From assembly GCA_902500205.1 (NCBI GenBank), contig GCA_902500205.1_4868.1: a stretch of 64,000 nt of DNA. One strand, 5' to 3'. Position 1 is the first letter of the stretch. Every line of letters begins with the position of its first letter. Of this stretch, positions 5,952-55,734 are shown piece after piece. The translations under genes were made by a program, and so were the position numbers. The notes beneath the pieces were generated by a model. It saw nothing but the letters and a program-made list of their open reading frames with translations. It ran no database searches and was not told the origin of the DNA. The stretch comes from Escherichia coli (lineage in GTDB: Bacteria > Pseudomonadota > Gammaproteobacteria > Enterobacterales > Enterobacteriaceae).

Positions 5952-6002
5952 GCGTTACACGTTAACGCTTTAATCGACTATTACCCAGAAGGAGTATTTA
6001 CA

Positions 6003-6401
6003 ATGACTAACCAACTACGCCAAGACCCGTTTGTTGCCATGATGCTTTGTGCTAAAGCCGAGAGCAACGAAGCCGATTTAATTCGTCTGTTGACTGATGA
6101 CGAATACCTTATCTCCGAGCGCGATAAACGTTTAAAAGAACTCTACAAGCCAGAAACCGGTGAATCGCTCGGCAATCAAGACGCCTGGAAGTTTCTTATT
6201 CTTGTTGCTGATGAAACGTGGCGAGCAAAAAATCCCATCGTCTGTGATATTACAGACCTACCGTACAAATACGGCGGACTCATCACTAGCGACCAGCACC
6301 TTAAAGCGTTCTTTGTTGGTGAAGCAATGCAAGAACTGCAAGATGTTCTTATTACAGCAACGGACACTTTGAAACGTTTGCGCGCCGAGCAGCTAATCTG
6401 A
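6003..6401 (+). CDS. hypothetical protein (132 aa), promoter-proximal
   Basis: Conserved leader AAGGAGTATTTACAATG. Confidence 0.6.
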   Translation: MTNQLRQDPFVAMMLCAKAESNEADLIRLLTDDEYLISERDKRLKELYKPETGESLGNQDAWKFLILVADETWRAKNPIVCDITDLPYKYGGLITSDQHLKAFFVGEAMQELQDVLITATDTLKRLRAEQLI

Positions 6402-6455
6402 TCTCTCAAAAATCACGAATCGTACAAATCCTTTGACTGTGTAGGAAGGAATAAA

Positions 6456-6845
6456 ATGAAAATCGCAGAGGGGTTAGTAGATGCGTGCAGAGACCCATTC
6501 ACGCTGTGGGTTCTTTGTGGCTTGCGCCGAGACGATCGTTTCGGTGAGTTTGTTCGAAATCCAGATGCTTTACTAAGCTTCGTAGAAAGCGAGGAGAAGC
6601 GTTTAGAGGAGATTAAAGAGGAAAGTAGTACCCTTACACCAGATATGGTGGTTTATAGCCGTATGACGTCACACAGGTGGCGTACGACCCATCGGCTGAA
6701 GGGAACCTCAATGAAGGAATTGATTGAAGGGTTATCAAAGGCGCTTTCGTCTGATAACATTATCTGGCCGGTGTTGTATACCAACGAAGACCATTCTGAT
6801 AACGTGAAGGTTACACTGACACGTTGTTATCACACATTCTCGTAG
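6456..6845 (+). CDS. hypothetical protein (129 aa)
   Basis: AGGAAGG upstream of ATG. Confidence 0.55.
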   Translation: MKIAEGLVDACRDPFTLWVLCGLRRDDRFGEFVRNPDALLSFVESEEKRLEEIKEESSTLTPDMVVYSRMTSHRWRTTHRLKGTSMKELIEGLSKALSSDNIIWPVLYTNEDHSDNVKVTLTRCYHTFS

Positions 6846-6879
6846 TAGTTAATCGACCATTACCGTAAGGAATATTTAC

Positions 6880-7551
6880 ATGCAGGGCACTGAACTCAAC
6901 AAACTTTGGGAAAAACTGGTTCGTCAATTCCGCGACTTCTATCGATATACCGATAGCGCGCATCGCATGGATCACATCAACTCAGTTAAATCAAATGCGA
7001 TTCGTATCGCGTATATGCTTGGGCAAACCGAACACCTGAAGCTGATACTGATTGCGGTGGCAGCTCACGATATCTTCTCTACCAAAGAAGACCGCGCGTC
7101 ACACCACATCAAAGGGTATAGCTGGATACTGGATAACAAGCCAGTGCTCAAACGTAAGTATAAACTTACCGATGATGAATGTTTGACGATTGCCCATGCA
7201 GTCTTAGAACACCGCAGTTCTCACAAAGGGAACTACAACGGGATTGTCTCTGAGATAGTTGCCGCAGCTGACCGCGGTATACCGTCTGTAGATGACGTGA
7301 GCAATTACATGCACCGTTCTTATCTGTTTGCCCGTGAACAGGGTAAAAGTAAAGGCGATGCAAAATTCCATGCCGTTGGTCACGTCCAACAGAAGTTCGG
7401 ACGCAACGGTATTAGTAATGTCCCTAGTTGGTACGGTACGCTCTTCGCAGAGCGCATTCTGGAACGCAGGGATTTCGTGGAGCAGCTAGATATTAGCTAT
7501 TTCACAGATACCATTATCGACGACCTCGAAGCTCGTCTTTCACACGATTAA
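6880..7551 (+). CDS. putative HD-domain phosphohydrolase
   Basis: H..HD..H..H..D pattern (SAHRMDH, AAHDIFS, HHIKG, AAADRG); conserved leader AAGGAATATTTACATG. Confidence 0.4.
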   Translation: MQGTELNKLWEKLVRQFRDFYRYTDSAHRMDHINSVKSNAIRIAYMLGQTEHLKLILIAVAAHDIFSTKEDRASHHIKGYSWILDNKPVLKRKYKLTDDECLTIAHAVLEHRSSHKGNYNGIVSEIVAAADRGIPSVDDVSNYMHRSYLFAREQGKSKGDAKFHAVGHVQQKFGRNGISNVPSWYGTLFAERILERRDFVEQLDISYFTDTIIDDLEARLSHD

Positions 7552-7577
7552 TCACACTGACCTTAAGGAATATTAAG

Positions 7578-8066
7578 ATGGCTGAAGTAACTTCAATGAA
7601 AGCACTGCACAAACTGATCGCTGAACTGGACACGCCGGCAGCAACCCTGTCCGAAGACCTGGCGCTGAATGCTGAGCCGCTGGTTAAGATTTACGAAGAA
7701 ACACTCCCCGTAACGAAAGTTGGGGATGTGGACTATCGCTTCACACTGGAAGACGCGGACGCTCTGCGACAGCACGACGCAAACTTCACTGAACTGTTCG
7801 GTGGCATTGCCGGTGGTCTGATTGCTGACCGTGCGAAAGCGGATAGCGAAATCGGTGCACTGGACTTAACGCTGGATATCGGTAACGCAGCATTCTCTAC
7901 CGTGTTCTCTCGCCCGGTTACTGAAAACCCAACTCAGAAAGAATGGGCAGCGTCCATCTCTTACGGTTACGGTTCTCCAAAGTCTAAAGCGTTGGAAGGC
8001 AAGCTGCGTAAAGAGTTTGCCAAGTCCATGATGGCAACTGATGAAGAAGACGAAGACGACGAATAA
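7578..8066 (+). CDS. hypothetical protein with acidic C-terminal tail (DEEDEDDE)
   Basis: Conserved leader AAGGAATATTAAGATG; optimal codons. Confidence 0.6.
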   Translation: MAEVTSMKALHKLIAELDTPAATLSEDLALNAEPLVKIYEETLPVTKVGDVDYRFTLEDADALRQHDANFTELFGGIAGGLIADRAKADSEIGALDLTLDIGNAAFSTVFSRPVTENPTQKEWAASISYGYGSPKSKALEGKLRKEFAKSMMATDEEDEDDE

Positions 8067-8428: not shown

Positions 8429-8485
8429 AGAAAACATTAGGGTGGTCTTATGACTGCCCTATTTTTTTTTGATTTTGGAGCTACA

Positions 8486-9075: not shown

Positions 9076-9076
9076 C

Positions 9077-17178: not shown

Positions 17179-19290
17179 ATGATACTGCGAAAAAACGATT
17201 GGCGGCACTATCCGGGGGCGATTGTTGACGATGTCACGCCAAACGTGCACTTCCTTCAATTCGCCACAACACTACAGGGATTAGGTGTCCAGCACTGGTA
17301 CGTACACCTGGCGTTACACAATCCTGAGCTACGTGGTGTTGATCCATTCAGTCCGGATTTAACGCTCGAACAAAAAGCGATGATTGTTACGGAGTGCGCG
17401 GAAAACCCATGGTACTTCTTCCGTGAATGTGTCCGTGTCCCTGCGGATGGTGTAAAAAACGGGATGCCGTTTCGTCTAGACCGCGGTAACTTTTCGATGT
17501 ACTGGATTTTCTTCAACAACATCGACGCCGCTATCGAGTTTCTCCGTCAGCATGGTAAAACTGTCGGGATGTCCGCACTGCTATTATGGCTGATGCGCTT
17601 CCTGGAGAACTCACGTACGATTCTTATCACGAAGGGTCCTGCCCTGCGTGAAGAAACTATCAACAAGATGAAGCAACTGCGTAACGCGTTACCGGATTAC
17701 CTCTGGCCTCATCATCCGGACGATCCTGATAACCGTGAGACATTTGCTTGTCTAGCACAGGGTAACAAACTTATCACCGGCATCGGCCAGAACGATAAGG
17801 AAGCCGCGAACGGGGTAGGCCGTGGACTCACAGCCGGACGCCTGTTCTCGGACGAAGGACCGTTTACCAACAACATCCACCATATCCTCCCTGCTGCACT
17901 AGCATCGGGTACCGCGGCGCGTCGTATTAACGAAGCCGAAGGTGTTCCATACGGCAACGTCTTCGCAACAACGCCTGGGGATTTGGCGACAGAAGAAGGC
18001 GAGTACATGTACAGCCTGATGACGTCGGGGATTTCGTGGGATGAACGGTATATCGACATTCCGACTCGTGCACAACTGATTGACATGATTCGCAAAGGCT
18101 CTACTGCGAAGATTCCACGTATCATGTTCTACGTGAAATACAACCACCGCCAACTCGGTACCACGGACGAAGAACTCGCAGATATGATTGCGAACGCCCC
18201 AGGTACACTAGACCAAATCCGCCGTGACTTCGGTGGTGAATGGACAACCGGTGGTTACAACAAACCGTTCTCAGGCGATGATGCAAGACGTATGAACGCC
18301 TCGCGTATTCGTGCGGCGCAGAAAATTATTTCTGCTTCCAACTACGTAACGGATTGGTATTACACTGAAGAACAGATGCTGGTTAAAATGCAAGACCGCC
18401 ACATCATCGGTTTGGATACTTCCGAAGCCGTTGGACGTGACGCCATTGCCATGTCAATCGTCAACTCTGTCACTGCCGAATATGCCGGCAAGCTCACCGT
18501 GAACGAAACAAACGTCATCGGGTTTGCGATTCACTTAGCAGACTTCATGATCGAATATCCGAACACGGTACTCATTCTGGAACGACGGTCTACCGGCTCC
18601 TCGGTAGCAGATGCCATTATACTGCAGCTGCAATCTAAGGTTCGCGATTTGCATCGTCGTTTGTACGTGAAAGTGACCCAGGATTACTCAAGGAACGATG
18701 AACTTTACAAAGAGTTCCATCGTGGCCCTGTGGGCAGTCCAGAGCGCTTCTGGGACAAATTCCGTAAATACATCGGTTTCTCAACCGACCAGGATAAACG
18801 CCGTAAGTTGTATGGTGAAGTATTTACCACGGCGTTGCGTCTTTCTGCGGACTTACTGCGGTCAGGCGAATTGATCGACCAAATCCTCGGTCTCGTCGAA
18901 CGAAACGGGCGCATAGACCACCGTGCATCCGGTCACGATGACCTGGTAATATCCTGGCTTCTGGCAATGTGGTTACTTCTGTTCGGCAACAACTTAGGCC
19001 ACTACGGTATAAGTAACAGCCGACTGATGATGCGCAACCGCAATATGCTCGGGGGCATGGCAGGTGAATTCGATGAAGAGGCTGCAGTCGAGGAAGAAGA
19101 AAAGCAACAACAACTGATGGGGCAAATTGAAACGATGATTAGACAGAGTCAAGTTGTAGCCGACCCGGTACAACAGCTCATGTACAAGAATCGTATTCAA
19201 GCGCTCGTCTCTCAACTCAACACTGACGTTCGTAACGTCGCATCGATGGAAAGCTTGAAAGAGCTAATCCAACGACAGAGGATGAAGTGA
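17179..19290 (+). CDS. terminase large subunit (ATPase plus nuclease)
   Basis: Walker A LRQHGKT close to T4 gp17 SRQLGKT; C-terminal nuclease-type motif RASGHDDLVISWLLA. Confidence 0.7.
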   Translation: MILRKNDWRHYPGAIVDDVTPNVHFLQFATTLQGLGVQHWYVHLALHNPELRGVDPFSPDLTLEQKAMIVTECAENPWYFFRECVRVPADGVKNGMPFRLDRGNFSMYWIFFNNIDAAIEFLRQHGKTVGMSALLLWLMRFLENSRTILITKGPALREETINKMKQLRNALPDYLWPHHPDDPDNRETFACLAQGNKLITGIGQNDKEAANGVGRGLTAGRLFSDEGPFTNNIHHILPAALASGTAARRINEAEGVPYGNVFATTPGDLATEEGEYMYSLMTSGISWDERYIDIPTRAQLIDMIRKGSTAKIPRIMFYVKYNHRQLGTTDEELADMIANAPGTLDQIRRDFGGEWTTGGYNKPFSGDDARRMNASRIRAAQKIISASNYVTDWYYTEEQMLVKMQDRHIIGLDTSEAVGRDAIAMSIVNSVTAEYAGKLTVNETNVIGFAIHLADFMIEYPNTVLILERRSTGSSVADAIILQLQSKVRDLHRRLYVKVTQDYSRNDELYKEFHRGPVGSPERFWDKFRKYIGFSTDQDKRRKLYGEVFTTALRLSADLLRSGELIDQILGLVERNGRIDHRASGHDDLVISWLLAMWLLLFGNNLGHYGISNSRLMMRNRNMLGGMAGEFDEEAAVEEEEKQQQLMGQIETMIRQSQVVADPVQQLMYKNRIQALVSQLNTDVRNVASMESLKELIQRQRMK

Positions 19291-19529
19291 TGACTCAACT
19301 CTACTATGCAATCGTGATGGTAATGTGGATTTGCCTGTACTTTGGCTTACGCCACACCATCGAAGTAATACGCATCCACGCACAAAGCCACGATGTCTGC
19401 ACACGCACAATGCGGCTCGGACAGATCACCTGTAGCTTTGGCGTATTGCTTATCGGTGGACTATCGACCGCGGGGCTACACGTTGTGTATACCCTACATC
19501 AAGTTGCCGTATCGGGAGCACTCGCCTGA
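19287..19529 (+). CDS. small hydrophobic protein, probably membrane
   Basis: Two hydrophobic stretches; start overlaps the terminase stop. Confidence 0.45.
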   Translation: MMTQLYYAIVMVMWICLYFGLRHTIEVIRIHAQSHDVCTRTMRLGQITCSFGVLLIGGLSTAGLHVVYTLHQVAVSGALA

Positions 19530-27117: not shown

Positions 27118-27119
27118 GA

Positions 27120-39831: not shown

Positions 39832-39849
39832 CAGATATTATCTCTGCGA
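39832..39849 (+). promoter_or_regulatory. phage promoter-like motif, class 1 (CAGATATTATCTCTGCGA)
   Basis: Second tandem copy, about 40 nt upstream of ATG 39890. Confidence 0.45.
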
Positions 39850-39889
39850 ACCGAACTATGATTGCAATCACTATTAAGGAATATTTAAA

Positions 39890-41743
39890 ATGGTAAAAAT
39901 CGTTGACTCTAACAACAACGCTCAGCAGAACAACACTCAGACTCAAGACACCGCACCACTGGGCGGTCTGGGCAACGAGACTGTAAAAGTGCAAACTGCT
40001 GTGCCGGGTACTTCTACTGTCAGCCAATTCGATAACGCATTTGGCATCCGCAACATCAGCACCTATGCAATGCACTTCGTCAACCTCCTGGACGAGCTGA
40101 AGAAAAGCAACGAATACCTCAACGCGTTCCGCTGGGGCACCATCGCCGGCGTGGGTAACGAAATGGGTTCCGCGGCGTATGTCGCAGGCCAGTGGCAGGG
40201 CCACTGGCTGTATGGTATCATCTTCTTTGAACGCGGTCAGTCTCTGCGTCTGAAAGAAACTACCAACAACGGCCAGGAAGACTACTACACCATCACTGAA
40301 CTGTTCAACAAAGACGTGCTGGCAGTAGTACAGAAAAACATCATGGAAGCGCATGGTCTGACCAATGCGAACTTCATGATCATCAACTCCGTACCAGACC
40401 TGGGTAAAGTTCTGGATGCTGAGTGGGCACGTACTCTGATGGGTCAGATGATGATGGGCATCTTCGGTCGTATCGCAGGCTACCTGGGTACGCTGAACCT
40501 GCGTAAGCATGACCGTTATCAGGCTGCAGTAATGCCGCTGGAAGATGGTGCGGTTGTGGATGCTAACGGCCACGCACAGCGTGCTGATTTCGCAATCACC
40601 GTTGAACACAGCCCAAGCAACGTAACCGACGCCACTCCGACTCTGCTGGACACCAATCAGGTACAGGTGTATCCGCGTGTATCCGGTACTGGTTTCGTCA
40701 ATATGCGTTTCACCGGTCAGAAGCCTGTCGTTAACGGCGTCTACGACCTGAAACAGCTGCAGGCTGAAATCGTAGTAAGTCTGATCGATTCTCAAACTGA
40801 AGGTGCAATGGCACCGTATGAACGTCAACTGCTGCTGCTGGCTGCATTTGCAGAAATCGCGGCAATCGGTGGCTGGCGTGACCTGTTTGTGAAACGTCTG
40901 AACAAACAAGATCGCAAGTTCTCCCGTGTGGCAGAATACCTGTCCTGGGGCGCTGACGCTCGTCCTGACGTATCCAAAATCGACGGTAGCCGTGAAGCTA
41001 TCGAAGGTTGCCTGGATATGTTCGCACCGCGTGAAGCAGCACTGGTAGTTAGCCATCGTGCCGGTAACGGCCTGGGTGGTCTGTCTACTTTGCTGTCTGA
41101 AATTGCGGTCGGTTACGACAACTCTCTGAAACAGCTGCTCGCTATTCTGAATTCCATGTCCCCGCGTGATCAGAACGGCGAAGTTGTTGCAGCGACCAGC
41201 TTCACTGCAGTATTTGCTTCTGCACTGAAAGCACAGCTGGGCGATGCCTTCAATGGTACCATCCATTGCAGCCACATCGTGAAAGCAGCCGTACCGACTG
41301 TTTCCGGTGTTTACACCGGTACTGCACAGAAACGTAGCTTCCAGGATATGGACCTGATTTCCGTTGTTACCAAACTGGGTGATAACGCGAACGACGTCTA
41401 TAGCTACCTGAACGCACAGTCCTACAGCCACCGTGAACTGAACGAGCGTCAACAGCGTATCTACATGCTGAAACTGGCCGCTTCTCTGTTCGCATCCAAA
41501 GCACCGCAAGCTACCGGTGAATCTCTGGATATGGCTATCAACCCGATCTTCGGTAAATGCCTGCTGGACTTCGTCCGTAACAACTGCACCTGGTCTATGA
41601 CTGGTGTAAATGCCTACAACACGATGGCGACCTCTCTGTTCTTCAACAACGGTGGGGAAGACTTCACGCTGTCTGGCAACGGCCTGTCTGCAAGCGGTTC
41701 CGATTTCGGTCTGGGCGTGACTCTGAGCAACTTCAAACTGTAA
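39890..41743 (+). CDS. abundant protein; candidate phage-nucleus shell protein (chimallin) or major capsid protein (617 aa)
   Basis: Strongest codon optimisation in the window; two tandem promoter motifs and conserved leader AAGGAATATTTAAAATG upstream; strong terminator downstream; size fits chimallins (about 600-630 aa). Confidence 0.45.
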   Translation: MVKIVDSNNNAQQNNTQTQDTAPLGGLGNETVKVQTAVPGTSTVSQFDNAFGIRNISTYAMHFVNLLDELKKSNEYLNAFRWGTIAGVGNEMGSAAYVAGQWQGHWLYGIIFFERGQSLRLKETTNNGQEDYYTITELFNKDVLAVVQKNIMEAHGLTNANFMIINSVPDLGKVLDAEWARTLMGQMMMGIFGRIAGYLGTLNLRKHDRYQAAVMPLEDGAVVDANGHAQRADFAITVEHSPSNVTDATPTLLDTNQVQVYPRVSGTGFVNMRFTGQKPVVNGVYDLKQLQAEIVVSLIDSQTEGAMAPYERQLLLLAAFAEIAAIGGWRDLFVKRLNKQDRKFSRVAEYLSWGADARPDVSKIDGSREAIEGCLDMFAPREAALVVSHRAGNGLGGLSTLLSEIAVGYDNSLKQLLAILNSMSPRDQNGEVVAATSFTAVFASALKAQLGDAFNGTIHCSHIVKAAVPTVSGVYTGTAQKRSFQDMDLISVVTKLGDNANDVYSYLNAQSYSHRELNERQQRIYMLKLAASLFASKAPQATGESLDMAINPIFGKCLLDFVRNNCTWSMTGVNAYNTMATSLFFNNGGEDFTLSGNGLSASGSDFGLGVTLSNFKL

Positions 41744-41770: not shown

Positions 41771-41810
41771 ACGGACGGGGGCTAACGCCTCCGTCCTTCC
41801 CTCTTTTTTT
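41771..41810 (+). terminator. intrinsic terminator
   Basis: GC-rich hairpin GGACGGGGG-CTAA-CGCCTCCGTCC plus T-run. Confidence 0.7.
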
Positions 41811-41825
41811 GTTGAGGTTGACAGT

Positions 41826-43777
41826 GTGAGAAAGGTACCAAAATTCTACGGAATATCCGGCCGGTTGGTTAGTCAGGATAACTATTTGTCCGATTTGCAA
41901 ATAGAAGCTGCTGCCAAAGGTATTAAACCACCCACTATTATTAACGATGTCGCCGTTAACGGGGATGCGATCGAGGTTGCTGAACTTATCGATCGCATGG
42001 TACAGAACAGAATCGTTGACGAAGAACTGAACTCTGCACCGATTTGTAGTTTGGATTGTCCGGCACCGATCGCGCATCGTTACAATCTCGGTTGTAAGTG
42101 TCCGACGTGTGGCTATGTTGTAACTGAACATCGAATTGAATCCGATGTCTGGTTACGTGCACCCGATGAAATGGGTAACTTCGTCAACCCACGATTCTGG
42201 GCAATGTTCAATGCTTTCTTTAATAGCAAGTTGAAGAAGTTTGAACGTAACAAGGTCACTATCGAACGCGGTAATGACTTGATGATGTGGATGATTGACC
42301 CGTATTACCGTATAGAAGAACCAGACGGTAAACGCGCACATGCTGTGAAACGTGTATTGGAAGAACATGGTTTCGTTCGTGGCTTGCGCAATCTGGTTGA
42401 TAACCACGTTAGTATCTTTAACATCCTTACCACGCCAGAAGCCTGGAAGGAAATCTTCGCACCTAATCGGCATAACGCCGCTGAAGGTGAACGCTTACGT
42501 TTACAATGGAAGGAGCTATTCGAAACGCAACGCCATGCATTCTTCCCAAGACACTTACCGCTAATCTCCTCTAAGCTTATCGTTACTGAGGAAGGTCGTC
42601 GTGGTGTCATGGTAGACCCAGTGTTCACGGGTGCTATCGATGCGGTGAAAAATATCGCGTTACTTTATACGCGGCGTAAAGCGATCGAACCACGTTTTCT
42701 GATTAGTCGCGCTTTGAAAGCCAACCGTCAGTTAACGTACTTCCACATGGACTTCCGTCGTGAGTCTATGGAAGGTAAACCGGGTGACTATCGTGCGAAA
42801 TTGGGTTCTACCCATATCCCATTCGGTGGTCGTGCAACCATCTCACCTATCTCAGAACCACACGATGCCTGGAAGTTAAAAGCACCATGGCGTTGGATGG
42901 TTGGGTTGATGTCGACCCACATCGAGAACAAACTGCTACGACGGGGTTATTCGTCACGGCAATGTGAACGTATCGTTGCAAAAGCGGCAATGCAGTATGA
43001 CCCGCTTGTAGATGAAATCTTTAAAGAACTGATTCGTGAATCCCCAGGCGGTCTTGGGATCATGGTCATACCGCTACGTAACCCAACGCTGGTACAGTTG
43101 TCTATTCAAACGCTGTACATCGATGAAGTTGTTACCGATGTTAACCAGTGTTCGCTGCGTATCTCTGACCGTGTGATCAAGATGGCTAACGGTTCGAAAA
43201 GAGCCCCATCGGACGGGAAACCTCTGATGCGTATTCTCCTGAAATGCTGGGAAACCCTAAAGCGTATCTACCAGAAATGGGGACGAAAGTCTGAAACAAC
43301 AGATACGATGGCCTACGCTAAACAATACTGCTAACGGTTGTGATAATGGGTAATCAGCAGCGAAGCCTCGTGAGAGGAACGTTCAACGACTATCGCTGAA
43401 ATGCGAGTAGGGGTCCCAGTGGACTTCGAAGTGGGAGAACACCTAAGGCGATAGCTATGGTGAAGATATAGTCTGTGCCTTATCGAGAGATAAGGAGGGT
43501 GTCTTAGCACACCTGCTGTATACGGAAACGGTATACGGTGGACAAACAGGATTTCGATGGCGACCAGTTCCAGGTACGTTTGCCAGTCGATGAAACTGAG
43601 ATGAAGTTGGCGCTCCAATTCCGTCCAGATAACGGCTTTATGTCTTCTACTGATGTGGACCGCGTAGAACACGGCATGGTTTTACATAACGAGCTAATCA
43701 GTATGCAGAACCAGTTCCTTATTGAAGCAGATGAGGATGATGAAGAAGGCATTCCGTTGGAAGCGGTGATGGGCTAA
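41826..43777 (+). CDS. RNA polymerase beta-prime subunit, N-terminal fragment, interrupted by a group I intron (exon 1 from 41826 to about 43166, exon 2 from about 43532 to 43777)
   Basis: Zn-finger-like CSLDC..CKCPTC; NPTLVQLSIQ matches beta-prime APTLHRLGIQ; exon 2 carries DFDGDQFQVRLP (catalytic NADFDGDQ); GTG start with GAGG upstream. Confidence 0.7.
43167..43531 (+). ncRNA. group I self-splicing intron (boundaries approximate)
   Basis: Canonical core elements: Q-like AATCAGCAGC (43351), R GTTCAACGACTA (43381..43392), S AAGATATAGTC (43463..43473, identical to the Tetrahymena S element), P9 hairpin CCTTATC..GATAAGG; 5' exon can end in T and intron in G with frame restored. Confidence 0.7.
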
Positions 43778-43790
43778 TAGGAGTATTGTA

Positions 43791-44372
43791 ATGTGGCTAC
43801 AAGGTAGCACGGTGTGGACGAAACAGACCGAAGGTAGCGGGGCACTCAGCGTATTCAAAGAATCGTTTTCGCTGTCTAGCCTGGCACCCGATCTCGTTGA
43901 CCGTGTAAAAGAACATTGTCAGGACTTAATCTCACTGGAGCGTTTCCGTGAAACATTCAGTACCGCACGTAAATTACGTTATAGCGATGCGGTAGAGATG
44001 GTAAGACAGATCGAAGAGTTGGGTGAATTCCAGTTCGCCAATGCTGCTTTACAGCCATTCCTCGTTGCCATGCCGGAATATCGTAAGTTGTATAATGACG
44101 GTATGGCGACTGGCTATGAGAACGGCTTTTCGCGGTTGGATGTGTTCAAAGGCAATGCGTATATGCGTACCGATGACCACTTCCGCGAAGCAACATCGGG
44201 CATTTCGACGAAGTACGATGAAGATAAGATTTGGCAATGGGCTACCAATGAAGATCGTGCAGTACGACTGAGTCGAATCGATAAAGTGGATATTCAACTT
44301 AACTGGGCACGCATGTCAGCTTTCGACTGGGAAGATGGTGATCCCTGTTCGGAACTTGGCGCGACGTGTTAA
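43791..44372 (+). CDS. hypothetical protein (193 aa)
   Basis: AGGAG upstream of ATG; terminator downstream. Confidence 0.55.
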   Translation: MWLQGSTVWTKQTEGSGALSVFKESFSLSSLAPDLVDRVKEHCQDLISLERFRETFSTARKLRYSDAVEMVRQIEELGEFQFANAALQPFLVAMPEYRKLYNDGMATGYENGFSRLDVFKGNAYMRTDDHFREATSGISTKYDEDKIWQWATNEDRAVRLSRIDKVDIQLNWARMSAFDWEDGDPCSELGATC

Positions 44373-48292: not shown

Positions 48293-48313
48293 AGATAGAT
48301 ATTATCTCAGTGC
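48293..48313 (+). promoter_or_regulatory. phage promoter-like motif, class 1 (TAGATAGATATTATCTCAGTG)
   Basis: Conserved motif copy about 30 nt upstream of ATG 48342. Confidence 0.5.
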
Positions 48314-48341
48314 AATCGACTATTCGCGGAGTTCAACTATA

Positions 48342-49976
48342 ATGAAAATTATGAAGATTAAAGACCGGATGACAATCGAGCATCGTGGTCAAGAGGTCAC
48401 ATTTATTGGCTTACGTTATCGGAAGGATAACAACGCACCCGACTACATCACTGTTAAAGGTAAACAGATTGCACGCGACAACATTCTCTTCATGGAATTA
48501 CAACGCGTGTGGGATTATTTAACGCCAGACGAACAAGATGAACTGTTCATGGCGTATCTGATGCTGGACGAGCTGGCAAACGAATCGACGGAAACGCAGC
48601 GTAAGCACATGCCGAAGATTGTGCAGACGATTGCGAAGTTCCACAAGGCCGAAGTGTATCGTAAGCTGTATCCCATCGATAAGCTGTGGATTCCGCAGAA
48701 CATGGAAGATACGCACGATGAAATGAACAGTAATTATCCGGAAGCGATGACGTACATTCGTCCGGACTATTACGAGTTGTTGATACTGGTCCTGATGATT
48801 AAACCGTATATTCCGGTGTTCCTCACCATGGGGACGTTCCCGATAGGTAAGAACTTGCCAATCGAAACACATCGGAAAATGGTGTACAATCTGACATACT
48901 GTCTGGAGATGCTTCAAGACACAGAAGTCATGTCTTTACCTGCTATTCCGAAACTGCGTGGGTTCCTACAGACAGTGATGGAAAAGGTAGAAAAAGAACT
49001 GGCAAACAAAGGTACGAACAGCACCAGTTTGTCGGTACTGGCTACGGTGCGGGGCTATGGCACGGATATGATGGAAGATTATATCCTGGCGTATGCTATT
49101 ATTAAATTGTTGGCTGTCCGTGAAGTCGGTGGTGAATTACCGATTGAAATCATGGTTAACAACAATATCGTCACCGGCATGTATTTTCTGGTTAAACAAG
49201 AGATTGAAACAGGTTTTGCAAACAAAATCTCTAACCAGCCGGTGCTGTTAAAAGCGCATCCGGAAAGTGTGGTATTCAATGGCGAAAAGGGTAAGATAAA
49301 CGCCATGGATTTGGTGCAGGCACGTTCTCCTGCACAGATGAAAGAATACGTCCGTACCGAGTACGTATTTAAAGAATACCGCTCTTTCTTGAAAACAATG
49401 CGTCTGGATAATGCCGCTCCAGCAGATGTTAAGTTATTGATTGATTCGCAACTGGCAACACATGACGGTCCTGTCTATACGTTGCACGAATGGTTAGTCG
49501 CATTAGCACTCCATCGTAGCGTGCATTATAAGACGTATACTGAATGTGGACCAGAAGCGTTTCGCTACGGTATGGCGTTGGCACAGGCAACTTATCTCAA
49601 TTATGGAATGTATGACGTTGCGCAACTGTTAAGTTGCAATATGGTGCGTTCTGAGATGTCTGCCGGTTATGCAGCCGACCCAATTCGATCTGAACTCAAA
49701 GCAGATTTAGATAGATATTATCTTCAGGAGTATCGCAACCCGCGTAATCTCGAACCGCAATCTACACCACGGGAATCACTGACCTTGTTACACAAGGATC
49801 ACATCAACCCGTATCTGTTCCATCTCAGGGCTACACCAGAAGCAGCTGCGCTGCTGAAGTGTGAGACGGATCAGCCAAACTATATACCTCACTTGTCACT
49901 GCACAATAGCCTGGCGGAGTTTATGGTGTTGAATGCACGTCGCAAGTTAGAAGAAGTTGAATGGTTTAATTCTTAA
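48342..49976 (+). CDS. hypothetical protein (544 aa)
   Basis: Promoter motif upstream; long ORF. Confidence 0.6.
   Translation: MKIMKIKDRMTIEHRGQEVTFIGLRYRKDNNAPDYITVKGKQIARDNILFMELQRVWDYLTPDEQDELFMAYLMLDELANESTETQRKHMPKIVQTIAKFHKAEVYRKLYPIDKLWIPQNMEDTHDEMNSNYPEAMTYIRPDYYELLILVLMIKPYIPVFLTMGTFPIGKNLPIETHRKMVYNLTYCLEMLQDTEVMSLPAIPKLRGFLQTVMEKVEKELANKGTNSTSLSVLATVRGYGTDMMEDYILAYAIIKLLAVREVGGELPIEIMVNNNIVTGMYFLVKQEIETGFANKISNQPVLLKAHPESVVFNGEKGKINAMDLVQARSPAQMKEYVRTEYVFKEYRSFLKTMRLDNAAPADVKLLIDSQLATHDGPVYTLHEWLVALALHRSVHYKTYTECGPEAFRYGMALAQATYLNYGMYDVAQLLSCNMVRSEMSAGYAADPIRSELKADLDRYYLQEYRNPRNLEPQSTPRESLTLLHKDHINPYLFHLRATPEAAALLKCETDQPNYIPHLSLHNSLAEFMVLNARRKLEEVEWFNS
49709..49729 (+). promoter_or_regulatory. 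phage promoter-like motif, class 1, intragenic (TAGATAGATATTATCTTCAGG)
   Basis: Full-length motif copy inside the 3' end of CDS 48342..49976, about 260 nt upstream of gene 49989. Confidence 0.4.
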
Positions 49977-49988
49977 GGAGTATTTAAA

Positions 49989-51689
49989 ATGCAGCTTGTA
50001 AATCTACTGATGTATCCGGTCTACGATGTTCCAGAGCAAGTTCGTCGCCGCATCGGCTTTAACGCATCGACGGGTGCACTGGATGACTTAGCAGCAGCGG
50101 TTGAACTGGGCGGGGAAAAAGCTGTGGGAACACAGCAGTATCAAGAAGCATTATCTGCCATCGTGGGCTTCGATGGCACCCAGAATGGTTTTGAGCGTCC
50201 ATTCATCAACGTGTCCGATGATGACAATCGTCCTGTACAGTTCCAATGGGAATCACGTGATACCGGTATCTTTAACTTCGTGGCGGTGTTTATTGCTAAA
50301 CCTCTGAATGCAACACGCACTCAGGAAACGCAATACATCGTCTCCGGTTATACCAGTCAGGCAGAAACCAGCCTGGGTAGCTTGCTGCCGGACGATATGG
50401 TGTTGTACATTAACGACATCTACGGCTTACAGGCAACGTATACACACGATGCCCTGGGCGGCAAAACATTGAACCCAGACTCATTCCGTCTACTGGATAA
50501 CTACGTTTTATCGAAAGCGTTGTCTGTTGAAGGTCAAACAGAAAGTACGGTAGATATCATTTCGATCGCGAAAGCGGCGGACATGGTAAAACGTATTGAA
50601 ATGAATAGCGGTGAGAAGTTCGTCCCAACGAGCGACTCTGTGCTATCCGCAACCAGTAGCTCTGCACCACAGTTGATGGTATCCCAACTCCAGCGTCCAG
50701 AAAACTACGTATCTGCCATCAGTAATGCGTATCTGGCAAGCTCTGGGGTAGATACCGAACTCGGTAGCGTGGAAAGCTTCTTTGCAGGTAATAACTCCAT
50801 CGGCGTTGAATCTGAATTGAAGCAACGTGGTGTTATCCGTAACTACAGCAACCACGAACTGATTGCTGCGATGCGTCAAGCACTCCAGAACGGGATGTCT
50901 GATGTATCTGGCGGCTGGAAAGCAACCAGTAAGGCGACGTTCCGTTTGGCTGATTTGCGTAATGCGATTGTCAACCCAATGCGGTTGGATGAATGTATCC
51001 GTGAATCGCTGGCGCTGGCAAGTCGCCGTGGGTTGGGTGCAGGGCTGGTTAACCAAACCGACCACTGGATTGGACGTAATGGCTTCTCCACGCAGGGTAG
51101 TCTAGTTGCGTATGATCTGGCTATGTCTATCGGGCCGATTATGTCACGTAACCTGATTGGTGAAGTGAGCTTTGTCTTTGATAACCGCAACACAGATATC
51201 ATGATAGAGCCTACGCTGGAAGTTATTCCTAACTCAGTCAGCAGCATCACGCACCATCAGTTACCTGCTGCTTTAGGTCGTCGTTTCTTGCAGAACATGA
51301 AAGAAGCGATGGTTCAGGTTACTAAACATAACCATATTCGCTGCCACATGCTGGTCACCGCATTGTTGGGGACCGTTACTCGTATTGAAATCCGTGTCGA
51401 CGACGAACCGCTGGAATATTACACCTACGCGTCGTTTATGCAATTCCGTCTCCATACCGGCAACACCACCGATCTCAAATACGTTGGTGAGCTGGCACAG
51501 AACACCGCAACGCTGTTGAAAGCCGTGGAAGAAGGTTATACAGAATTCGAGAAAGGCCAAGGCCGGGGTCGAATGCTATCTAACATTCCAACTAACACAG
51601 GTGGCTTAGATCCTCTTGGAGGTCTTGACCTGGGTGGTGGCTTAGGCGGTATAGGCGGAAACGGACTCGGCAACGGTCTCATTGATTAA
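49989..51689 (+). CDS. hypothetical protein with Gly-rich low-complexity C-terminal tail (566 aa)
   Basis: Conserved leader TAAGGAGTATTTAAAATG; C-terminus GGLDPLGGLDLGGGLGGIGGNGLGNGL. Confidence 0.6.
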   Translation: MQLVNLLMYPVYDVPEQVRRRIGFNASTGALDDLAAAVELGGEKAVGTQQYQEALSAIVGFDGTQNGFERPFINVSDDDNRPVQFQWESRDTGIFNFVAVFIAKPLNATRTQETQYIVSGYTSQAETSLGSLLPDDMVLYINDIYGLQATYTHDALGGKTLNPDSFRLLDNYVLSKALSVEGQTESTVDIISIAKAADMVKRIEMNSGEKFVPTSDSVLSATSSSAPQLMVSQLQRPENYVSAISNAYLASSGVDTELGSVESFFAGNNSIGVESELKQRGVIRNYSNHELIAAMRQALQNGMSDVSGGWKATSKATFRLADLRNAIVNPMRLDECIRESLALASRRGLGAGLVNQTDHWIGRNGFSTQGSLVAYDLAMSIGPIMSRNLIGEVSFVFDNRNTDIMIEPTLEVIPNSVSSITHHQLPAALGRRFLQNMKEAMVQVTKHNHIRCHMLVTALLGTVTRIEIRVDDEPLEYYTYASFMQFRLHTGNTTDLKYVGELAQNTATLLKAVEEGYTEFEKGQGRGRMLSNIPTNTGGLDPLGGLDLGGGLGGIGGNGLGNGLID

Positions 51690-51701
51690 GGATTATTAAC
51701 C

Positions 51702-53069
51702 ATGAAATTGATTGAATTCTACCGTTCGTTTCTGACCTCGCTCGGATACGGATTCGAAGGTGACATGTTGACCATCGATGATGGTCATCCGGCAATGTTC
51801 ACCTACAACAAAGTGAAGCGCCGCTTGGTGCTTCCAACTGCAGCGATGATTAAGCGTGGGTTGGAAGATGACGAAGGTAGTGAATGTCATGCGTTCCACC
51901 CACTGTGTGAATCGGTACTGGCTGGCGAATCTGGAACGATTCGTTTCCTGAAGAAAGCCATCAGCGCGAACCTCTTCCTGAAAAGCTTCGAGTTAATCGA
52001 TGCGATTTTGGAAACAGCAGCCGAAGGAAAAAATATCCGTCTGGCATCGTACAAGAAGTTTTTAAGCGATGTGGTTTGTGCTGACCTGAAAGATCCAACG
52101 ATGGATAAGAAACTGGTTCAGAGCTGGCACGCAGTGAAGAACTACGTTTACGGGTTGCTGGAAGAAGATAAAAAGACAAAGATCACCAGTATCTTCATCT
52201 CCAGCGATATGACCATTGAAGGTATCAAATATATCCGCGTGGCGAACTACAAACACATGTTTGAAGAAGAGTCACTGGATGGTACGGCAACATTCTTCGG
52301 TGCCAAGCTCCAGCGTAAGCAGGATAAGGTCATTATCTTTAACCTGCTAACTGCAGTGTTTGGTTGGTATCCTTCGGTTACGGGTTCTAACGATCCGCGT
52401 CCGTACTTCGGTTCTTTGGCACGCGGTTGGGCACAATACGTGACCAACTACAATCAAGTGGTTCGTGGTCTGCGTGACCACACTCCACTGCGTCCGTTAG
52501 AAGAAGAATGGATTGGCCAACTGGATAACATGAGCGTTTATGATAACGTTATCCAAACTCTGCCGTATAATACCGGCCCACGTAACGATCAGGCAACAGA
52601 CACCACCGCAACGGATTTCCGTATCGGGCGTACACCTGCCGGTACAAAGCCGGTCGTTGCTTTAGCTTCTCAACAAGCTCCGCAGGAAAATCTTGATCTC
52701 AACGATCCGGTAAACTATTTCCGTGCGAAGAAAGCGCAACAGGCGTCTTCAGCTAATAGCTTCAATGCGTTAGCACCGAAGATTCAGGAAGCGCTGCGTG
52801 AGAACAACGGCCATTTACCGAAAGGGACAATTAAAGAACTGTCTCTCGGTGAAGCGCTGCGTGGTAATGCGGTGACGAAAGAAAGTGGTCTGGGTTCTGG
52901 TTTGCTGGGAAGTAGTAATAATCTCTTGGGGGGTAGCACGCAGTTGGGCGGCGGTAGCACCAACCTCTTAGGAGGGAGTAGTGACGTGTTAGGTGGTCTG
53001 GGTGGTTTAGGTGGCGGAAGTAGCAGCATTTTAGGCAACCTACCATTCTCATCAGCTAATTTACGTTAA
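51702..53069 (+). CDS. hypothetical protein with Gly/Ser/Leu-rich low-complexity C-terminal tail (455 aa)
   Basis: C-terminal repeats of LLGG/LGG over the last 80 residues or so; terminator downstream. Confidence 0.6.
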   Translation: MKLIEFYRSFLTSLGYGFEGDMLTIDDGHPAMFTYNKVKRRLVLPTAAMIKRGLEDDEGSECHAFHPLCESVLAGESGTIRFLKKAISANLFLKSFELIDAILETAAEGKNIRLASYKKFLSDVVCADLKDPTMDKKLVQSWHAVKNYVYGLLEEDKKTKITSIFISSDMTIEGIKYIRVANYKHMFEEESLDGTATFFGAKLQRKQDKVIIFNLLTAVFGWYPSVTGSNDPRPYFGSLARGWAQYVTNYNQVVRGLRDHTPLRPLEEEWIGQLDNMSVYDNVIQTLPYNTGPRNDQATDTTATDFRIGRTPAGTKPVVALASQQAPQENLDLNDPVNYFRAKKAQQASSANSFNALAPKIQEALRENNGHLPKGTIKELSLGEALRGNAVTKESGLGSGLLGSSNNLLGGSTQLGGGSTNLLGGSSDVLGGLGGLGGGSSSILGNLPFSSANLR

Positions 53070-53079
53070 GCGTTAGAAA

Positions 53080-53107
53080 GAAGGGACTGGGCGTCCCTTC
53101 TTTTTTT
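53080..53107. terminator. intrinsic terminator (probably bidirectional)
   Basis: Hairpin GAAGGGAC-TGGG-CGTCCCTTC plus T-run. Confidence 0.7.
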
Positions 53108-53430
53108 CAAGATTCTACGATAGTCGATAAGATGTTACTTACCACACCGACACTAGGAACCAATAAGGTTCTTATCTCTGGCGTGAAATCAAACGGAGTA
53201 GAAATTCCGTTCATTAACATCATCGGATAAATAATACTATTATCGTACTGTTTGAGACGACAGTACGCGTAGAAACTGTGTACCTCTGGGTAGGCATATT
53301 TTGGGTCAACAACTTCTTCTGTAGTATCTGGGTGTTTGCGAAGGAAGTCTGTATAGTCATGCAACACCTTATACTTGGTCGAATCAGGCGAAGGTATTAT
53401 TTCGGATAAGGTAGCAAATTTATCTAGCAT
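53107..53430 (-). CDS. hypothetical protein (107 aa)
   Basis: AGGAGA upstream of the minus-strand ATG 53430. Confidence 0.55.
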   Translation of the reverse strand: MLDKFATLSEIIPSPDSTKYKVLHDYTDFLRKHPDTTEEVVDPKYAYPEVHSFYAYCRLKQYDNSIIYPMMLMNGISTPFDFTPEIRTLLVPSVGVVSNILSTIVES

Positions 53431-53450
53431 CGTCTCTCCTTAAAATAAAA

Positions 53451-53474
53451 CAGATAGATATTATCTTACCGAGG
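53451..53474 (+). promoter_or_regulatory. phage promoter-like motif, class 1 (CAGATAGATATTATCTTACCGAGG)
   Basis: Conserved motif copy about 25 nt upstream of the RNAP beta gene start. Confidence 0.5.
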
Positions 53475-53496
53475 TAACCAAAAGGAGCATTTACGA

Positions 53497-55734
53497 ATGA
53501 AAACACCAGTCGAACTCATGTCAAGCGTTGCTGACCGTGAGGTGAATATCACTGGCGTATCTGGGGCACGTGCCTCAATGGTGGGTGGACATATGAAGTC
53601 GGCGGTACCACTGGACAATCCAGATCCGACTATCCATTTTACCGGCGCTGATGTGAACTACCACGATTATTGTTTTAACGATATCGTGGAAGATAGTGGT
53701 ACTGTGTGCAGTTACACAACCAAAGAAGGTGTTACTCGTGCAGCTGTTTTTGCACGCTATGGTCGTGAAGGGGATCACGATCCGCTCCAGCATGTTATCT
53801 TCTTCACGCGCGCAGATTTAACCAACCAGCGCAAAGTGATGATTGATGTAATCGATATTAAGTATTACACCAACCACGATAACATTTTCTCGTCTAAGAA
53901 AGAGGCTACTGGGAAACTTCAGGCGTTGCTGCGCGGACAGACGCAGCACCTGGAAAAAGATGAAATGCTTACCGTACTGCCGGCACAGAAAGACGGTGAG
54001 TTTGTCGATGGGGTCAATCTGCACACTGTGACAATGTCGCACCCAGACATTATCGAGGACTCGTACACCATCTCCGAAACTGCAGCGAAGGCGATGCACG
54101 CTTATGGTTTGCGTGCAATCGACTTTACCTTGCGCGACGACGAGTACCTGCTTGATACGTATGGGACAACGGGTATTGATGGCGTTCGTCGGCCACAGTA
54201 CCTGCCCAATAAAGGACAGGCAATTCGCGATGATGGGTTGGTTATAGCCGCGCGTCGTTTCGATAAGCTGTGGGCGGCTATTGACTCGCACGTGGGCGAA
54301 ACACAACATATCTCTCCGCACTTCGACCGTTGTGAGTATGTTGACGCTGACCCTGAGCATTACAAAGCGCGTCAGGCCGGCGACTTTGAAAAGATGGAAC
54401 GTACTGGTTCTCGTGTCGTTGATATTCAGGTATGGCGGGACGAAACCAAATGCGATCGTGGTGTTAACAATATCGCATGTACCGAAGAGAACAAACGCGA
54501 GTTAGATCACTACGCGAACGCTTTGAAACGTTTTTACAATGATATCGTGCGGTTCTATTTTGCGATGTCCAAAGACAAGAACATTGTCTGGTCACCGAAA
54601 GCGTTTGAGATCCTTGACAAGGCGTTCTGTTCTGAGACGTATGAAGTCTATAACGACTTCCGTGAAGAGATTGGTCGTGAATACGATGAAGCCATGCGCA
54701 AAGGCGAGTATAACCGTTCTGCTGATAAGAACGTGTTAAACAAACTGGCGCAGCCGGTTCAGCGTGGTCTCTGGGACCCAATTGGTAGTTACACGATACG
54801 CATCGTGGTACGTTATCCAATCCCAGTTACCGTCTCATCGAAAATCACCGACCGTTCAGGTACAAAAGGTATCGTGGGTGCAGTGCGGCCTGATGAAGAA
54901 ATGCCGATTAACGAGTTCGGAGAACGTGTGCATGTCATTCGTTCCATGAACGCCGTAATTCGTCGTTCGACTTATGCTGCGCTGTTCCACATGTATTGGT
55001 CTGCTGCATCCGAGCAGTTGAAGATGCGGTTGAAACCTTTACTTGCCGCCAACCAGGTTGACGAAGCCTGGGAAATCCTGATGGACTATATCGATCGCTA
55101 TAACCCACGCTGGACATTCTATCTCAATGCCAGTCACCCGGATACTGGGTCACGTCTGGAACTCTTTAAAGAGATTTACGACTTCACGATTCGTATCTGG
55201 CTTCCCCACGAATTGAATGCTACCCAGGTAGAAATCTGCCGTGCTCTAGGCGAGTATGCACCACGCAAGTCTAAGCTACTGATTACTAACTATCAGGGTG
55301 AGAAAGAGTGGACGAAGAACCAGTTCTACGTCGGCATGGTAGAGACTCTGCGCCTGGATAAAACCGGTCGTGAGTTCTCCAGTATCTCGTCGATGTACAC
55401 GAACTATTTGGGTTGTATTGATGCATCCAACCAAGGACGTGGTTCATATCCGATTAACCTGAAAGGGTTGAAGTGGGGTGGTCCTTCCGAGCAGCGTCTT
55501 ACCGACGGCTTTGGTCCGGGCAACTTCCCCGAAACTCATGACCGCGCTAATAACCCTGCGGTACACCGTGCGATCGTAACGGGGCTGTATAACTCGCCAA
55601 CACCAACCAATCCGGGGGTGCTGGTCGATCGTAAGAAACTGCCAATGGGTGATTCGCAGATTGACAGGATGATACGTAACATCCATCGCTGTGAAGGTTT
55701 TGAATTAGTGCGTCCAATTCGGGAGGATAAATAA
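53497..55734 (+). CDS. RNA polymerase beta subunit, C-terminal portion (split-gene form)
   Basis: DRSGTKGIVGAVRPDEEMPINEFGERVHVIRSMN matches bacterial beta GRHGNKGVISKI.PIEDMPYDENG..PSRMN; EDSYTISE and LDKTGREFSSIS match further beta blocks. Confidence 0.75.
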   Translation: MKTPVELMSSVADREVNITGVSGARASMVGGHMKSAVPLDNPDPTIHFTGADVNYHDYCFNDIVEDSGTVCSYTTKEGVTRAAVFARYGREGDHDPLQHVIFFTRADLTNQRKVMIDVIDIKYYTNHDNIFSSKKEATGKLQALLRGQTQHLEKDEMLTVLPAQKDGEFVDGVNLHTVTMSHPDIIEDSYTISETAAKAMHAYGLRAIDFTLRDDEYLLDTYGTTGIDGVRRPQYLPNKGQAIRDDGLVIAARRFDKLWAAIDSHVGETQHISPHFDRCEYVDADPEHYKARQAGDFEKMERTGSRVVDIQVWRDETKCDRGVNNIACTEENKRELDHYANALKRFYNDIVRFYFAMSKDKNIVWSPKAFEILDKAFCSETYEVYNDFREEIGREYDEAMRKGEYNRSADKNVLNKLAQPVQRGLWDPIGSYTIRIVVRYPIPVTVSSKITDRSGTKGIVGAVRPDEEMPINEFGERVHVIRSMNAVIRRSTYAALFHMYWSAASEQLKMRLKPLLAANQVDEAWEILMDYIDRYNPRWTFYLNASHPDTGSRLELFKEIYDFTIRIWLPHELNATQVEICRALGEYAPRKSKLLITNYQGEKEWTKNQFYVGMVETLRLDKTGREFSSISSMYTNYLGCIDASNQGRGSYPINLKGLKWGGPSEQRLTDGFGPGNFPETHDRANNPAVHRAIVTGLYNSPTPTNPGVLVDRKKLPMGDSQIDRMIRNIHRCEGFELVRPIREDK

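Follow-up and report, generated by a model that had tools for sequence, protein, structure and literature searches.

A recurrent ribosome-binding leader and its promoter cassette in an SPN3US-like jumbo phage

Seven genes in a 64,000-nucleotide (nt) stretch of contig GCA_902500205.1_4868.1 (assembly GCA_902500205.1, listed under Escherichia coli; the whole stretch is referred to as the window) begin with almost the same leader. Do these genes, named here by their start positions (6003, 6880, 7578, 31553, 39890, 49989 and 53497), share only a good Shine–Dalgarno (SD) sequence, or something more? Two 7-8-kilobase (kb) pieces of the window are 98-99% identical to Salmonella phage SPN3US (NC_027402) and around 30 close relatives, and 60-80% identical to Erwinia jumbo phages; judged by sequence, the window is that of an SPN3US-like nucleus-forming jumbo phage. 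SPN3US (genus Seoulvirus) is a phiKZ-like jumbo phage in which the multisubunit RNA polymerase genes are split. The nucleus-forming phages of this type express their genes independently of host RNA polymerase, and their early mRNAs compete for host ribosomes within minutes. Our tests confirm that, statistically, the leader goes beyond a generic SD. We favour, at a probability of roughly 0.6, the reading that it is an optimised ribosome-binding site (RBS) of early genes within repeated promoter–leader cassettes. The most economical explanation is an ordinary one: a strong, weakly structured RBS that is favoured by early promoter-proximal genes and has partly spread in cassettes. The leader itself is no new kind of signal, and forms the tail end of a cassette of promoter, hairpin and conserved box.

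Two genomes were compared whole, that of SPN3US, which is annotated, and that of Erwinia phage phiEaH2 (genus Erskinevirus). We obtained 62 gene starts in the window by transfer of the SPN3US annotation, used 264 SPN3US coding sequence (CDS) coordinates, all checked for intact frames, for a genome-wide leader alignment, and aligned 205 SPN3US/phiEaH2 ortholog pairs at the start codon.

Seven leaders and the genome-wide consensus

A sequence-only reading of the window had described a near-identical leader, an extended SD followed by an A/T-rich spacer, at seven or more genes. The leader is present directly 5′ of the named ATG at all seven sites. The full consensus, as written in that reading, fits 39890 and 49989, and fits 6003 in all but its first base; the other four leaders depart from it. 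The core truly common to the seven is AAGGAR-YATT(T), with a spacer of 7-9 nt, which agrees with the usual distance of around 5-9 nt from an SD to a genuine start codon. At all seven sites the SD (TAAGGAG/TAAGGAA) is complementary to the 3′ terminus of 16S ribosomal RNA (rRNA), 3′-AUUCCUCC-5′. The word AAGGARYATTT has six exact matches in the window as against 0.12 expected (maximum 2 in 100 dinucleotide shuffles), all six on the + strand and each at a start codon. The class is larger than the seven, as the earlier wording had allowed: an SD followed by YAT precedes 11 of the 62 mapped starts, and on this ground 43791, 51702, 60962 and, weakly, 12059 belong to it. The seven leaders and three of the further members are as follows.

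5989-6005, + strand: leader 1, cagAAGGAGTATTTACA-ATG (AAGGAG, TATTTACA, ATG), of gene 6003-6401, phrog_27024
6866-6882, + strand: leader 2, TAAGGAATATTTAC-ATG (TAAGGAA, TATTTAC, ATG), of gene 6880-7551, annotated as an HD-domain protein
7564-7580, + strand: leader 3, TAAGGAATATTAAG-ATG (TAAGGAA, TATTAAG, ATG), of gene 7578-8066
31537-31555, + strand: leader 4, TAAGGAGCATTTCTCG-ATG (TAAGGAG, CATTTCTCG, ATG), of gene 31553-31873
39875-39892, + strand: leader 5, TAAGGAATATTTAAA-ATG (TAAGGAA, TATTTAAA, ATG), of gene 39890-41743, a chimallin homolog
49974-49991, + strand: leader 6, TAAGGAGTATTTAAA-ATG (TAAGGAG, TATTTAAA, ATG), of gene 49989-51689; the TAA of the SD doubles as the stop codon of the upstream open reading frame, which ends at 49976
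53481-53499, + strand: leader 7, AAAGGAGCATTTACGA-ATG (AAAGGAG, CATTTACGA, ATG), of gene 53497-55734, an RNA polymerase beta subunit, phrog_3295
43778-43793, + strand: further leader of the class, TAGGAGTATTGTA-ATG (TAGGAG, TATTGTA, ATG), start 43791
51687-51704, + strand: further leader of the class, TAAGGATTATTAACC-ATG (TAAGGAT, TATTAACC, ATG), start 51702
60948-60964, + strand: further leader of the class, AAAGGATTATTACG-ATG (AAAGGAT, TATTACG, ATG), start 60962

The proteins of the seven genes have full-length matches to seven different PHROG families. The matches show that the genes are real, and because the families differ we reject the idea that the leader is common to them through gene duplication. 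Their starts agree with the SPN3US annotation, with the full-length PHROG matches and with N-terminal tblastn matches in phiEaH2. The sole domain found in a Pfam scan is the RNA polymerase domain in 53497. Gene 39890 is the counterpart of SPN3US ACQ60_gp244, a diverged homolog of chimallin (the nuclear shell protein) according to Laughlin et al. (PMC9365700); a PDB sequence search with the 39890 and 49989 proteins gave no match, so the chimallin assignment of 39890 rests on that study.

Is the leader simply the SD of the genome at its best? A leader alignment across all genes gave a mixed answer. Anchored on the ATG, the 264 SPN3US leaders reveal only a smeared, purine-rich SD. Anchored on GGA (160 SPN3US genes with AGGA or GGAG), they read T-A-A-G-G-A-G and then t-A-T-t-t-a-a, with only 0.07-0.17 bit per position in the spacer; the seven leaders are thus the ones that come closest to the consensus of the genome as a whole, and the profile itself holds only TAAGGAG and a weakly A/T-rich spacer. 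One might conclude that there is nothing beyond a generic SD, and that the seven form the upper tail of variation around the RBS consensus together with a general A/T richness before starts. The low information content of the spacer speaks for this conclusion, as do an identity between ortholog spacers that is barely above background and the retention of TATT in only 5 of the 16 phiEaH2 orthologs of SPN3US TATT leaders.

The word counts point the other way. GGAN-TATT occurs 19 times as against 3.9 expected if the spacer columns were independent (maximum 11-12 in 5000 column shuffles), and 12 times as against 2.5 when the leaders of the box cassettes (see below) are left out; in neither case does any of 5000 shuffles reach the observed number. 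Annotation-free counts agree: AAGGAGTAT (14 copies), CTTAAGGAG (13) and AGGAGTATT (13) rank with the most abundant 9-mers on the SPN3US + strand and have 0-1 copies on the reverse complement (1 for AAGGAGTAT). The trinucleotide after AAGGAG is TAT at 14 of 61 sites (23%) in SPN3US and at 10 of 59 (17%) in phiEaH2, as compared with a TAT share of all trinucleotides of 1.5% and 1.1%, respectively; the word preference is therefore real and common to two genera with different hosts. Both members carry GGAN-TATT in 5 ortholog pairs (SPN3US only in 11, phiEaH2 only in 3), and the marginal frequencies predict around 0.6 joint cases by chance. With the association to predicted early promoters described below, these tests disfavour a purely generic SD, an explanation that we regard as improbable, and they bear out the earlier claim of something beyond a normal SD as a matter of statistics.

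Conservation between the two genera indicates what this something may be. Leader identity between orthologs is 63-68% in the SD, 45-59% in the spacer and 40-45% in the upstream background. TATT often becomes TATG, TAC or another A/T-rich word in the ortholog; YATT is kept in the phiEaH2 orthologs of 31553, 39890, 49989 and 53497. On these alignments, the spacer appears to be a compositional or word preference with turnover, and not a fixed element.

Predicted early promoters and the use of the leader

A motif of the form AGATA(G/T)ATATTA(T/C)CT followed by nAG(G/T)GAG has 23 matches in SPN3US (AGATAKATATTAYCT, at most 2 mismatches), 21 of which lie between genes, in the orientation of the gene that follows and at 30-139 nt from its ATG. 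The window contains 9 matches (0.23 expected), and the motif also occurs on many IMG/VR contigs of 208-246 kb. Early promoters of the virion RNA polymerase have been described as a highly conserved A/T-rich motif of around 10 nt near −10 that bioinformatic searches detect 5′ of early operons (PMC7598289, PMC8244752). By analogy, the motif found here, which is conserved, A/T-rich, co-oriented with the genes and placed before presumed early operons, has the published features of a phiKZ-type early promoter, and we treat its matches as predicted promoters. The likeness to phiKZ (PMC7598289, PMC8244752, PMC10914365) includes a conserved A/T-rich motif of around 10-15 nt, co-orientation with the genes and short implied 5′ untranslated regions (UTRs), and the motif here precedes RNA polymerase subunit and chimallin-homolog genes. 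Unlike in phiKZ, the sequence is the clade-specific one given above and the transcription starts are predicted ones. The promoters predicted near leader genes are listed here.

5931-5952, + strand: predicted early promoter, variant AGATATATATTACTT-AGGTGAG, with a 15-nt core that ends 57 nt before ATG 6003; transcription would start near GTGAG
31508-31522, + strand: predicted early promoter, ends 30 nt before ATG 31553
39736-39750, + strand: predicted early promoter, ends 139 nt before ATG 39890
39829-39843, + strand: second predicted early promoter, ends 46 nt before ATG 39890
49709-49723, + strand: perfect match to the early-promoter motif, inside the upstream CDS, ends 265 nt before ATG 49989
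53452-53466, + strand: predicted early promoter, ends 30 nt before ATG 53497 (RNA polymerase beta subunit gene)

Genes 6880 and 7578 are the next genes but one in the 6003 operon, and each of the seven leader genes has a predicted early promoter within around 1.6 kb on its 5′ side. One palindromic sequence, AGCTAGATATTAGCT at 7484-7498 (+ strand), nearly matches the promoter; it is located within CDS 6880-7551, 79 nt before ATG 7578. Across the genome, genes with a TATT leader are over-represented within 150, 1000 and 3000 nt 3′ of a predicted early promoter (odds ratio of around 5.4; p = 0.009, 0.001 and 0.001, respectively). Folding energies of the segment between −35 and +25 are −4.9 kcal/mol in TATT leaders and −6.4 in the remaining YAT leaders, as against −8.6 in other genes with an SD (p = 8e-6).

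In the reading that we favour, the 7-nt SD (U)AAGGAG would pair with the 3′ end of host 16S rRNA and would be followed by an unpaired A/U-rich spacer of 7-9 nt, mostly beginning with UAUU or CAUU, and the AUG. The arrangement would be used preferentially by genes just 3′ of early (virion RNA polymerase type) promoters, such as those for the chimallin homolog, the RNA polymerase beta subunit and several small proteins, in which strong SD pairing and a short, weakly structured 5′ UTR may allow host ribosomes to be loaded efficiently straight after infection. In a subset of genes, near-identity probably has a second cause, in that the leader there forms the 3′-terminal part of a repeated cassette, made up of early promoter, 5′ hairpin, AATCGACYATTA box, SD and spacer, that is conserved across genera and has probably been copied around the genome. 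The positions of the start sites, the early timing and the effect on translation are what we infer. The suggestion of a translational enhancer holds in part: a role in translation initiation fits the 7-nt SD, the spacing and the less stable folds, and the spacer finds little support as a discrete conserved element.

Several observations weigh against this reading. YATT is lost in the phiEaH2 orthologs of three of the seven genes (6003, 6880 and 7578). The lower folding energy is partly a trivial consequence of an A/T-rich word, and in whole-leader minimum-free-energy folds of IMG/VR relatives the stretch from SD to AUG is on average only 55% unpaired; a fully unpaired RBS was not upheld. The label 'early' for the leader genes is taken from the predicted promoter motif and an analogy with phiKZ. 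Finally, a general A/U preference leaves the choice of UAU(U) over other A/U-rich spacers unexplained, which gives room for a sequence-specific reader.

One such reader would be a phage or host nuclease, or an RNA-binding protein, that recognizes the SD and YAUUU together and inactivates or represses early mRNAs, in the manner of T4 RegB with S1; host RNase E is an alternative agent. The word is specific (UAUU, not any A/U run) and enriched near predicted early promoters. GU/AUU inside GGAGUAUUU fits the RNase E consensus, RN/WUU, but the looseness of this consensus means that A/U-rich spacers in general will tend to fit it. There is a precedent in T4, in which RegB with S1 cuts GGAG after its second G in the SDs of early genes and needs a conserved 3′ context; strong sites (GGAGRAYARAA, cut at the same position) consist of an SD and a conserved A-rich 3′ flank, and are found in early and not late mRNAs (PMC3014915). 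The present leaders resemble the T4 targets in having GGAG in the initiation region of genes predicted to be early and, as there, an SD with a conserved 3′ flank common to many of them. They differ from them in that flank, which reads YATTTAMR (YAUUUAMR in RNA) instead of RAYARAA and begins with a pyrimidine where RegB has a purine, and in being known from sequence alone. Spacer turnover of the extent seen between orthologs is also weak conservation for a site recognized by a protein, and we consider cleavage or repression at this word unlikely.

The phage T7 gene 10 leader, AAGGAGAUAUACAUAUG, which is used in expression vectors, is a canonical strong SD with an A/U-rich spacer. The leaders described here are similar to those of the T7 gene 10 type in their long SD complementary to the 16S rRNA 3′ end, their A/U-rich, low-structure spacer of 7-9 nt and their use in highly expressed phage genes. 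They differ in that the preferred spacer is UAUU(U)A and not AUAUACAU, and in being specific to a jumbo-phage clade and enriched near predicted early promoters. The UUAACUUUA 'epsilon' sequence is absent from all seven.

The conserved box and the repeated cassette

Part of the class carries a further sequence. The class-1 box, (T)AATCGAC(T/C)ATTA (the AATCGACYATTA box), lies 4-5 nt 5′ of AAGGAG. With up to 2 mismatches, SPN3US has 15 matches on the + strand and 0 on the − strand, as compared with around 2.7 chance matches per strand by our calculation, and 12 of the 15 adjoin gene starts. Of the 9 closest matches, 8 lie 16-19 nt from the ATG; two degenerate copies are 11 nt away from it. Boxes occur in the window at 6003, 6880, 28618 and 48342, and degenerate copies at 7578 and 39890.

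5951-5969, + strand: 5′ hairpin of the predicted early transcript, with a 7-bp stem AGCGTTA/TAACGCT and a 5-nt loop
5971-5983, + strand: class-1 box TAATCGACTATTA, 5 nt before the AAGGAG of leader 1
6850-6862, + strand: class-1 box TAATCGACCATTA, operon-internal, 4 nt before the AAGGAA of leader 2
7550-7560, + strand: degenerate box AATCACACTGA, upstream of leader 3
28544-28620, + strand: second full cassette, with predicted promoter AGATAGATATTACCT-AAGTGAG, hairpin GAGATGAG/CTCATCT, box ACTCGACTATAA, weak SD AAGGT and ATG 28618
39866-39876, + strand: box variant AATCACTATTA, without the G, abutting the SD of the chimallin-homolog gene
48293-48325, + strand: predicted early promoter at 48293-48307 and, immediately after it, box AATCGACTATTC at 48314-48325, both 5′ of gene 48342/48369-49976

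The start at 48369, taken from the SPN3US annotation, has no SD, and the in-frame ATG 48342 lies 16 nt after box AATCGACTATTC; the true start may be 48342, because GCGGAG precedes this ATG at the usual distance from box to ATG.

The elements have a fixed order in the SPN3US cassettes at 4427, 56294, 65413, 94239, 113986 and 223277 (the last being window position 5931): promoter variant AGATATATATTACYTAGGTGAG, a short hairpin with a 5′ arm that begins in GTGAG, box, SD, spacer and ATG. Two cassettes, at SPN3US 65454 and 94279, are near-identical over around 30 nt. The gene for a phage HTH protein, SPN3US ACQ60_gp165, is itself preceded by the canonical cassette. The cassette is conserved across Seoulvirus, Erskinevirus and Machinavirus, and the orthologs of the 6003 cassette in phiEaH2, Machina (Machinavirus) and pEa_SNUABM_29 retain promoter, hairpin and box. 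The hairpin at 5951 varies in sequence and keeps its structure in paralogous and orthologous cassettes; stems in the 6003-cassette orthologs include AGCGTTA/TAACGCT, AGATTA/TAATCT and AACTTGC/GTAAGTT, and the spacer differs in each (tatttaca, ctttatc, taaaca and aatttata). A 5′-terminal hairpin folds in 11 of 11 aligned cassettes. A scan of IMG/VR with the promoter variant returned 95 distinct instances, many on contigs of 208-246 kb. In 48 unique leaders from this set, the first 32 nt form more stable folds than shuffled sequences do (mean z −2.4, p = 3e-13) and GTGA lies 53 nt from the ATG (interquartile range 51-57). TAT follows GGAN in 14 of the 61 IMG/VR leaders that have this promoter variant and a recognisable GGA. 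Among the matches listed in an IMG/VR scan with box and SD (TCGACYATTA-N2-7-AAGGA), nearly all were single, on small contigs and apparently due to chance.

The box occurs at the orthologous position in phiEaH2 for 8 of 11 box genes, with flanks that are 25-50% identical and proteins that average around 50% identity. As the box is kept while its flanks diverge, it is the box, and not the spacer, that is the strongly conserved extra sequence. We found no published description of the AATCGACYATTA box in a literature search, and a literal text search of the literature for the motif strings gave no relevant match.

The remaining proposal of the sequence-only reading was an overlapping promoter element, which would act at the DNA level in one of two forms. 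In the first, the spacer TATT would correspond to the late core of phiKZ, T-3 A T G+1, in which all four bases are required and the G is the start site (PMC7598289). This form finds no support. After the SD, TATT outnumbers TATG by 19 to 3 in SPN3US, so that the G is missing in most. TATG (observed/expected 0.66) and CATA (0.55) are depleted in SPN3US, with the same pattern in phiEaH2 and TATG among the most depleted 4-mers of both genomes, and TATT is not depleted (1.07-1.11). TATG, often as agTATGa, peaks 29-60 nt 5′ of start codons, away from the SD (for example, 19 as against 4.3 expected at −36 to −29 in SPN3US). Because TATT prevails after the SD and is undepleted, the spacer is not a late promoter and we reject it as one; the distribution of TATG suggests that a phiKZ-like late promoter core exists in SPN3US. 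A late-promoter-like TATG is present in the window at 39857-39860, after the second predicted promoter of 39890.

In the second form, the AATCGACYATTA box, by itself or together with TATT 15-16 nt further on, would be a 'middle' promoter of the non-virion RNA polymerase, and a gene with a box as well as an early promoter would then have two phases of expression. Its fixed distance from the ATG and its retention in phiEaH2 among randomised flanks favour this form. So does its location directly after terminator T-runs at SPN3US 167591 and 165765, because of which those SPN3US genes may need a promoter of their own. The box also recalls the TACT motif of the phiKZ middle promoter, which is centred 22 nt 5′ of the start site, and the phiKZ chimallin gene PHIKZ054 is transcribed from tandem start sites, one early and one middle (PMC8244752). 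Against it, a start 22 nt past the box would fall at the ATG and would produce leaderless mRNAs, which are not seen in phiKZ (PMC8244752). By eye, GACTATTA and GAGTATT(T) resemble a direct repeat 15-16 nt apart, and the coupling of box and TATT is strong in SPN3US (by our own count, roughly 5 of 13 box leaders as against 14 of 251 other genes), but it is not conserved in phiEaH2, in which TAT follows the SD in 2 of 9 box leaders. A functional direct repeat of box GACTATTA and GAGTATT was rejected for that reason, and the coupling more likely reflects copying between cassettes. Taking both forms together, a promoter that overlaps the RBS is a doubtful explanation of the leader.

At SPN3US 165687-165783 and around 167510-167622 (outside the window), an early-promoter-like motif, a hairpin, an intrinsic terminator, a box and a gene follow one another, and the box is the only element between terminator and RBS. 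By analogy with phiKZ, for which this has been reported, the arrangement could give rise to short 5′ RNAs by premature termination.

Somewhat more plausible, but still tentative, is a broader reading in which the AATCGACYATTA box, the adjacent SD and the YATT spacer together would form a dedicated cis-regulatory module of this nucleus-forming jumbo-phage clade (Seoulvirus, Erskinevirus, Machinavirus and uncultured relatives). The module would be either an RNA operator, read by a phage protein that controls the translation or decay of a subset of early mRNAs, or a 'middle' promoter of the non-virion RNA polymerase with starts at or near the RBS. In either form, the leader as described would be one half of a bipartite signal.

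Composite signals of this kind have parallels in other phages. T4-type promoter-early stem-loop (PeSL) elements (PMC2839356, PMC4122927) are likewise short cassettes of promoter and stem-loop repeated before many early genes of unknown function. In PeSLs, however, the stem-loop is a terminator joined to the early promoter between early genes, whereas here repetition and early promoter are present and the hairpin is located 3′ of the promoter, lacks a T-run and precedes a conserved single-stranded box and the SD. In the early and late transcripts of AR9, another jumbo phage that encodes its own RNA polymerases, 5′ UTR motifs of unknown function have likewise been predicted; unlike here, the UTRs are 26-491 nt long, in a different phage group with a different host (PMC5312081). 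The available passages of the phiKZ papers mention neither a hairpin nor a box after the promoter, both of which follow one promoter variant here.

The preferred early initiation region and the cassette provide rules with which to annotate start codons and early transcription units in SPN3US-like phages, and ready-made strong expression signals with which to engineer them. The cassette also yields a short list of candidates for co-regulation, around 14 box-bearing genes per genome, and box and hairpin are the part that deserves follow-up. According to a review, the middle and late promoters of these phages are not predictable bioinformatically (PMC7598289). That gap would be filled if the box is a middle promoter or an RNA operator; if it is neither, what is left is an ordinary, well-optimised RBS.

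Other features of the window

An Rfam covariance-model scan of the whole window returned a group I intron and two tRNAs only, and no known RNA family reached its gathering score in the leaders. The intron (RF00028, 69.4 bits, E = 1.6e-15, full-length model) is located at 43174-43495 (+ strand), within the 3′ portion of an RNA polymerase beta-subunit gene whose start is at 41826. The counterpart gene in the SPN3US reference (17704-19299) is uninterrupted, and the offset between window and record jumps by around 356 nt across the intron.

GC-rich hairpins with T-runs at 41800-41826, 57850-57886 and 8450-8485, which are predicted terminators in the matching SPN3US regions, end around 10-25 nt before the next start and therefore leave no room for a separate promoter; this compact spacing may mean read-through or very compact signals.

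A region of around 1.5 kb (~26010-27570) has no + strand protein gene annotated in SPN3US and one − strand gene of 78 amino acids, which starts at 27296. It includes a weak second tRNA at 27048-27117 (36 bits; 'tRNA-OTHER' in SPN3US), a strong tRNA (25624-25696) lies just upstream, and no match to the early promoter or the box was found within it. In SPN3US as in phiEaH2, no 4-mers are more strongly depleted genome-wide than GATC and CTAG (observed/expected 0.26-0.59), which suggests avoidance of restriction or methylation sites.

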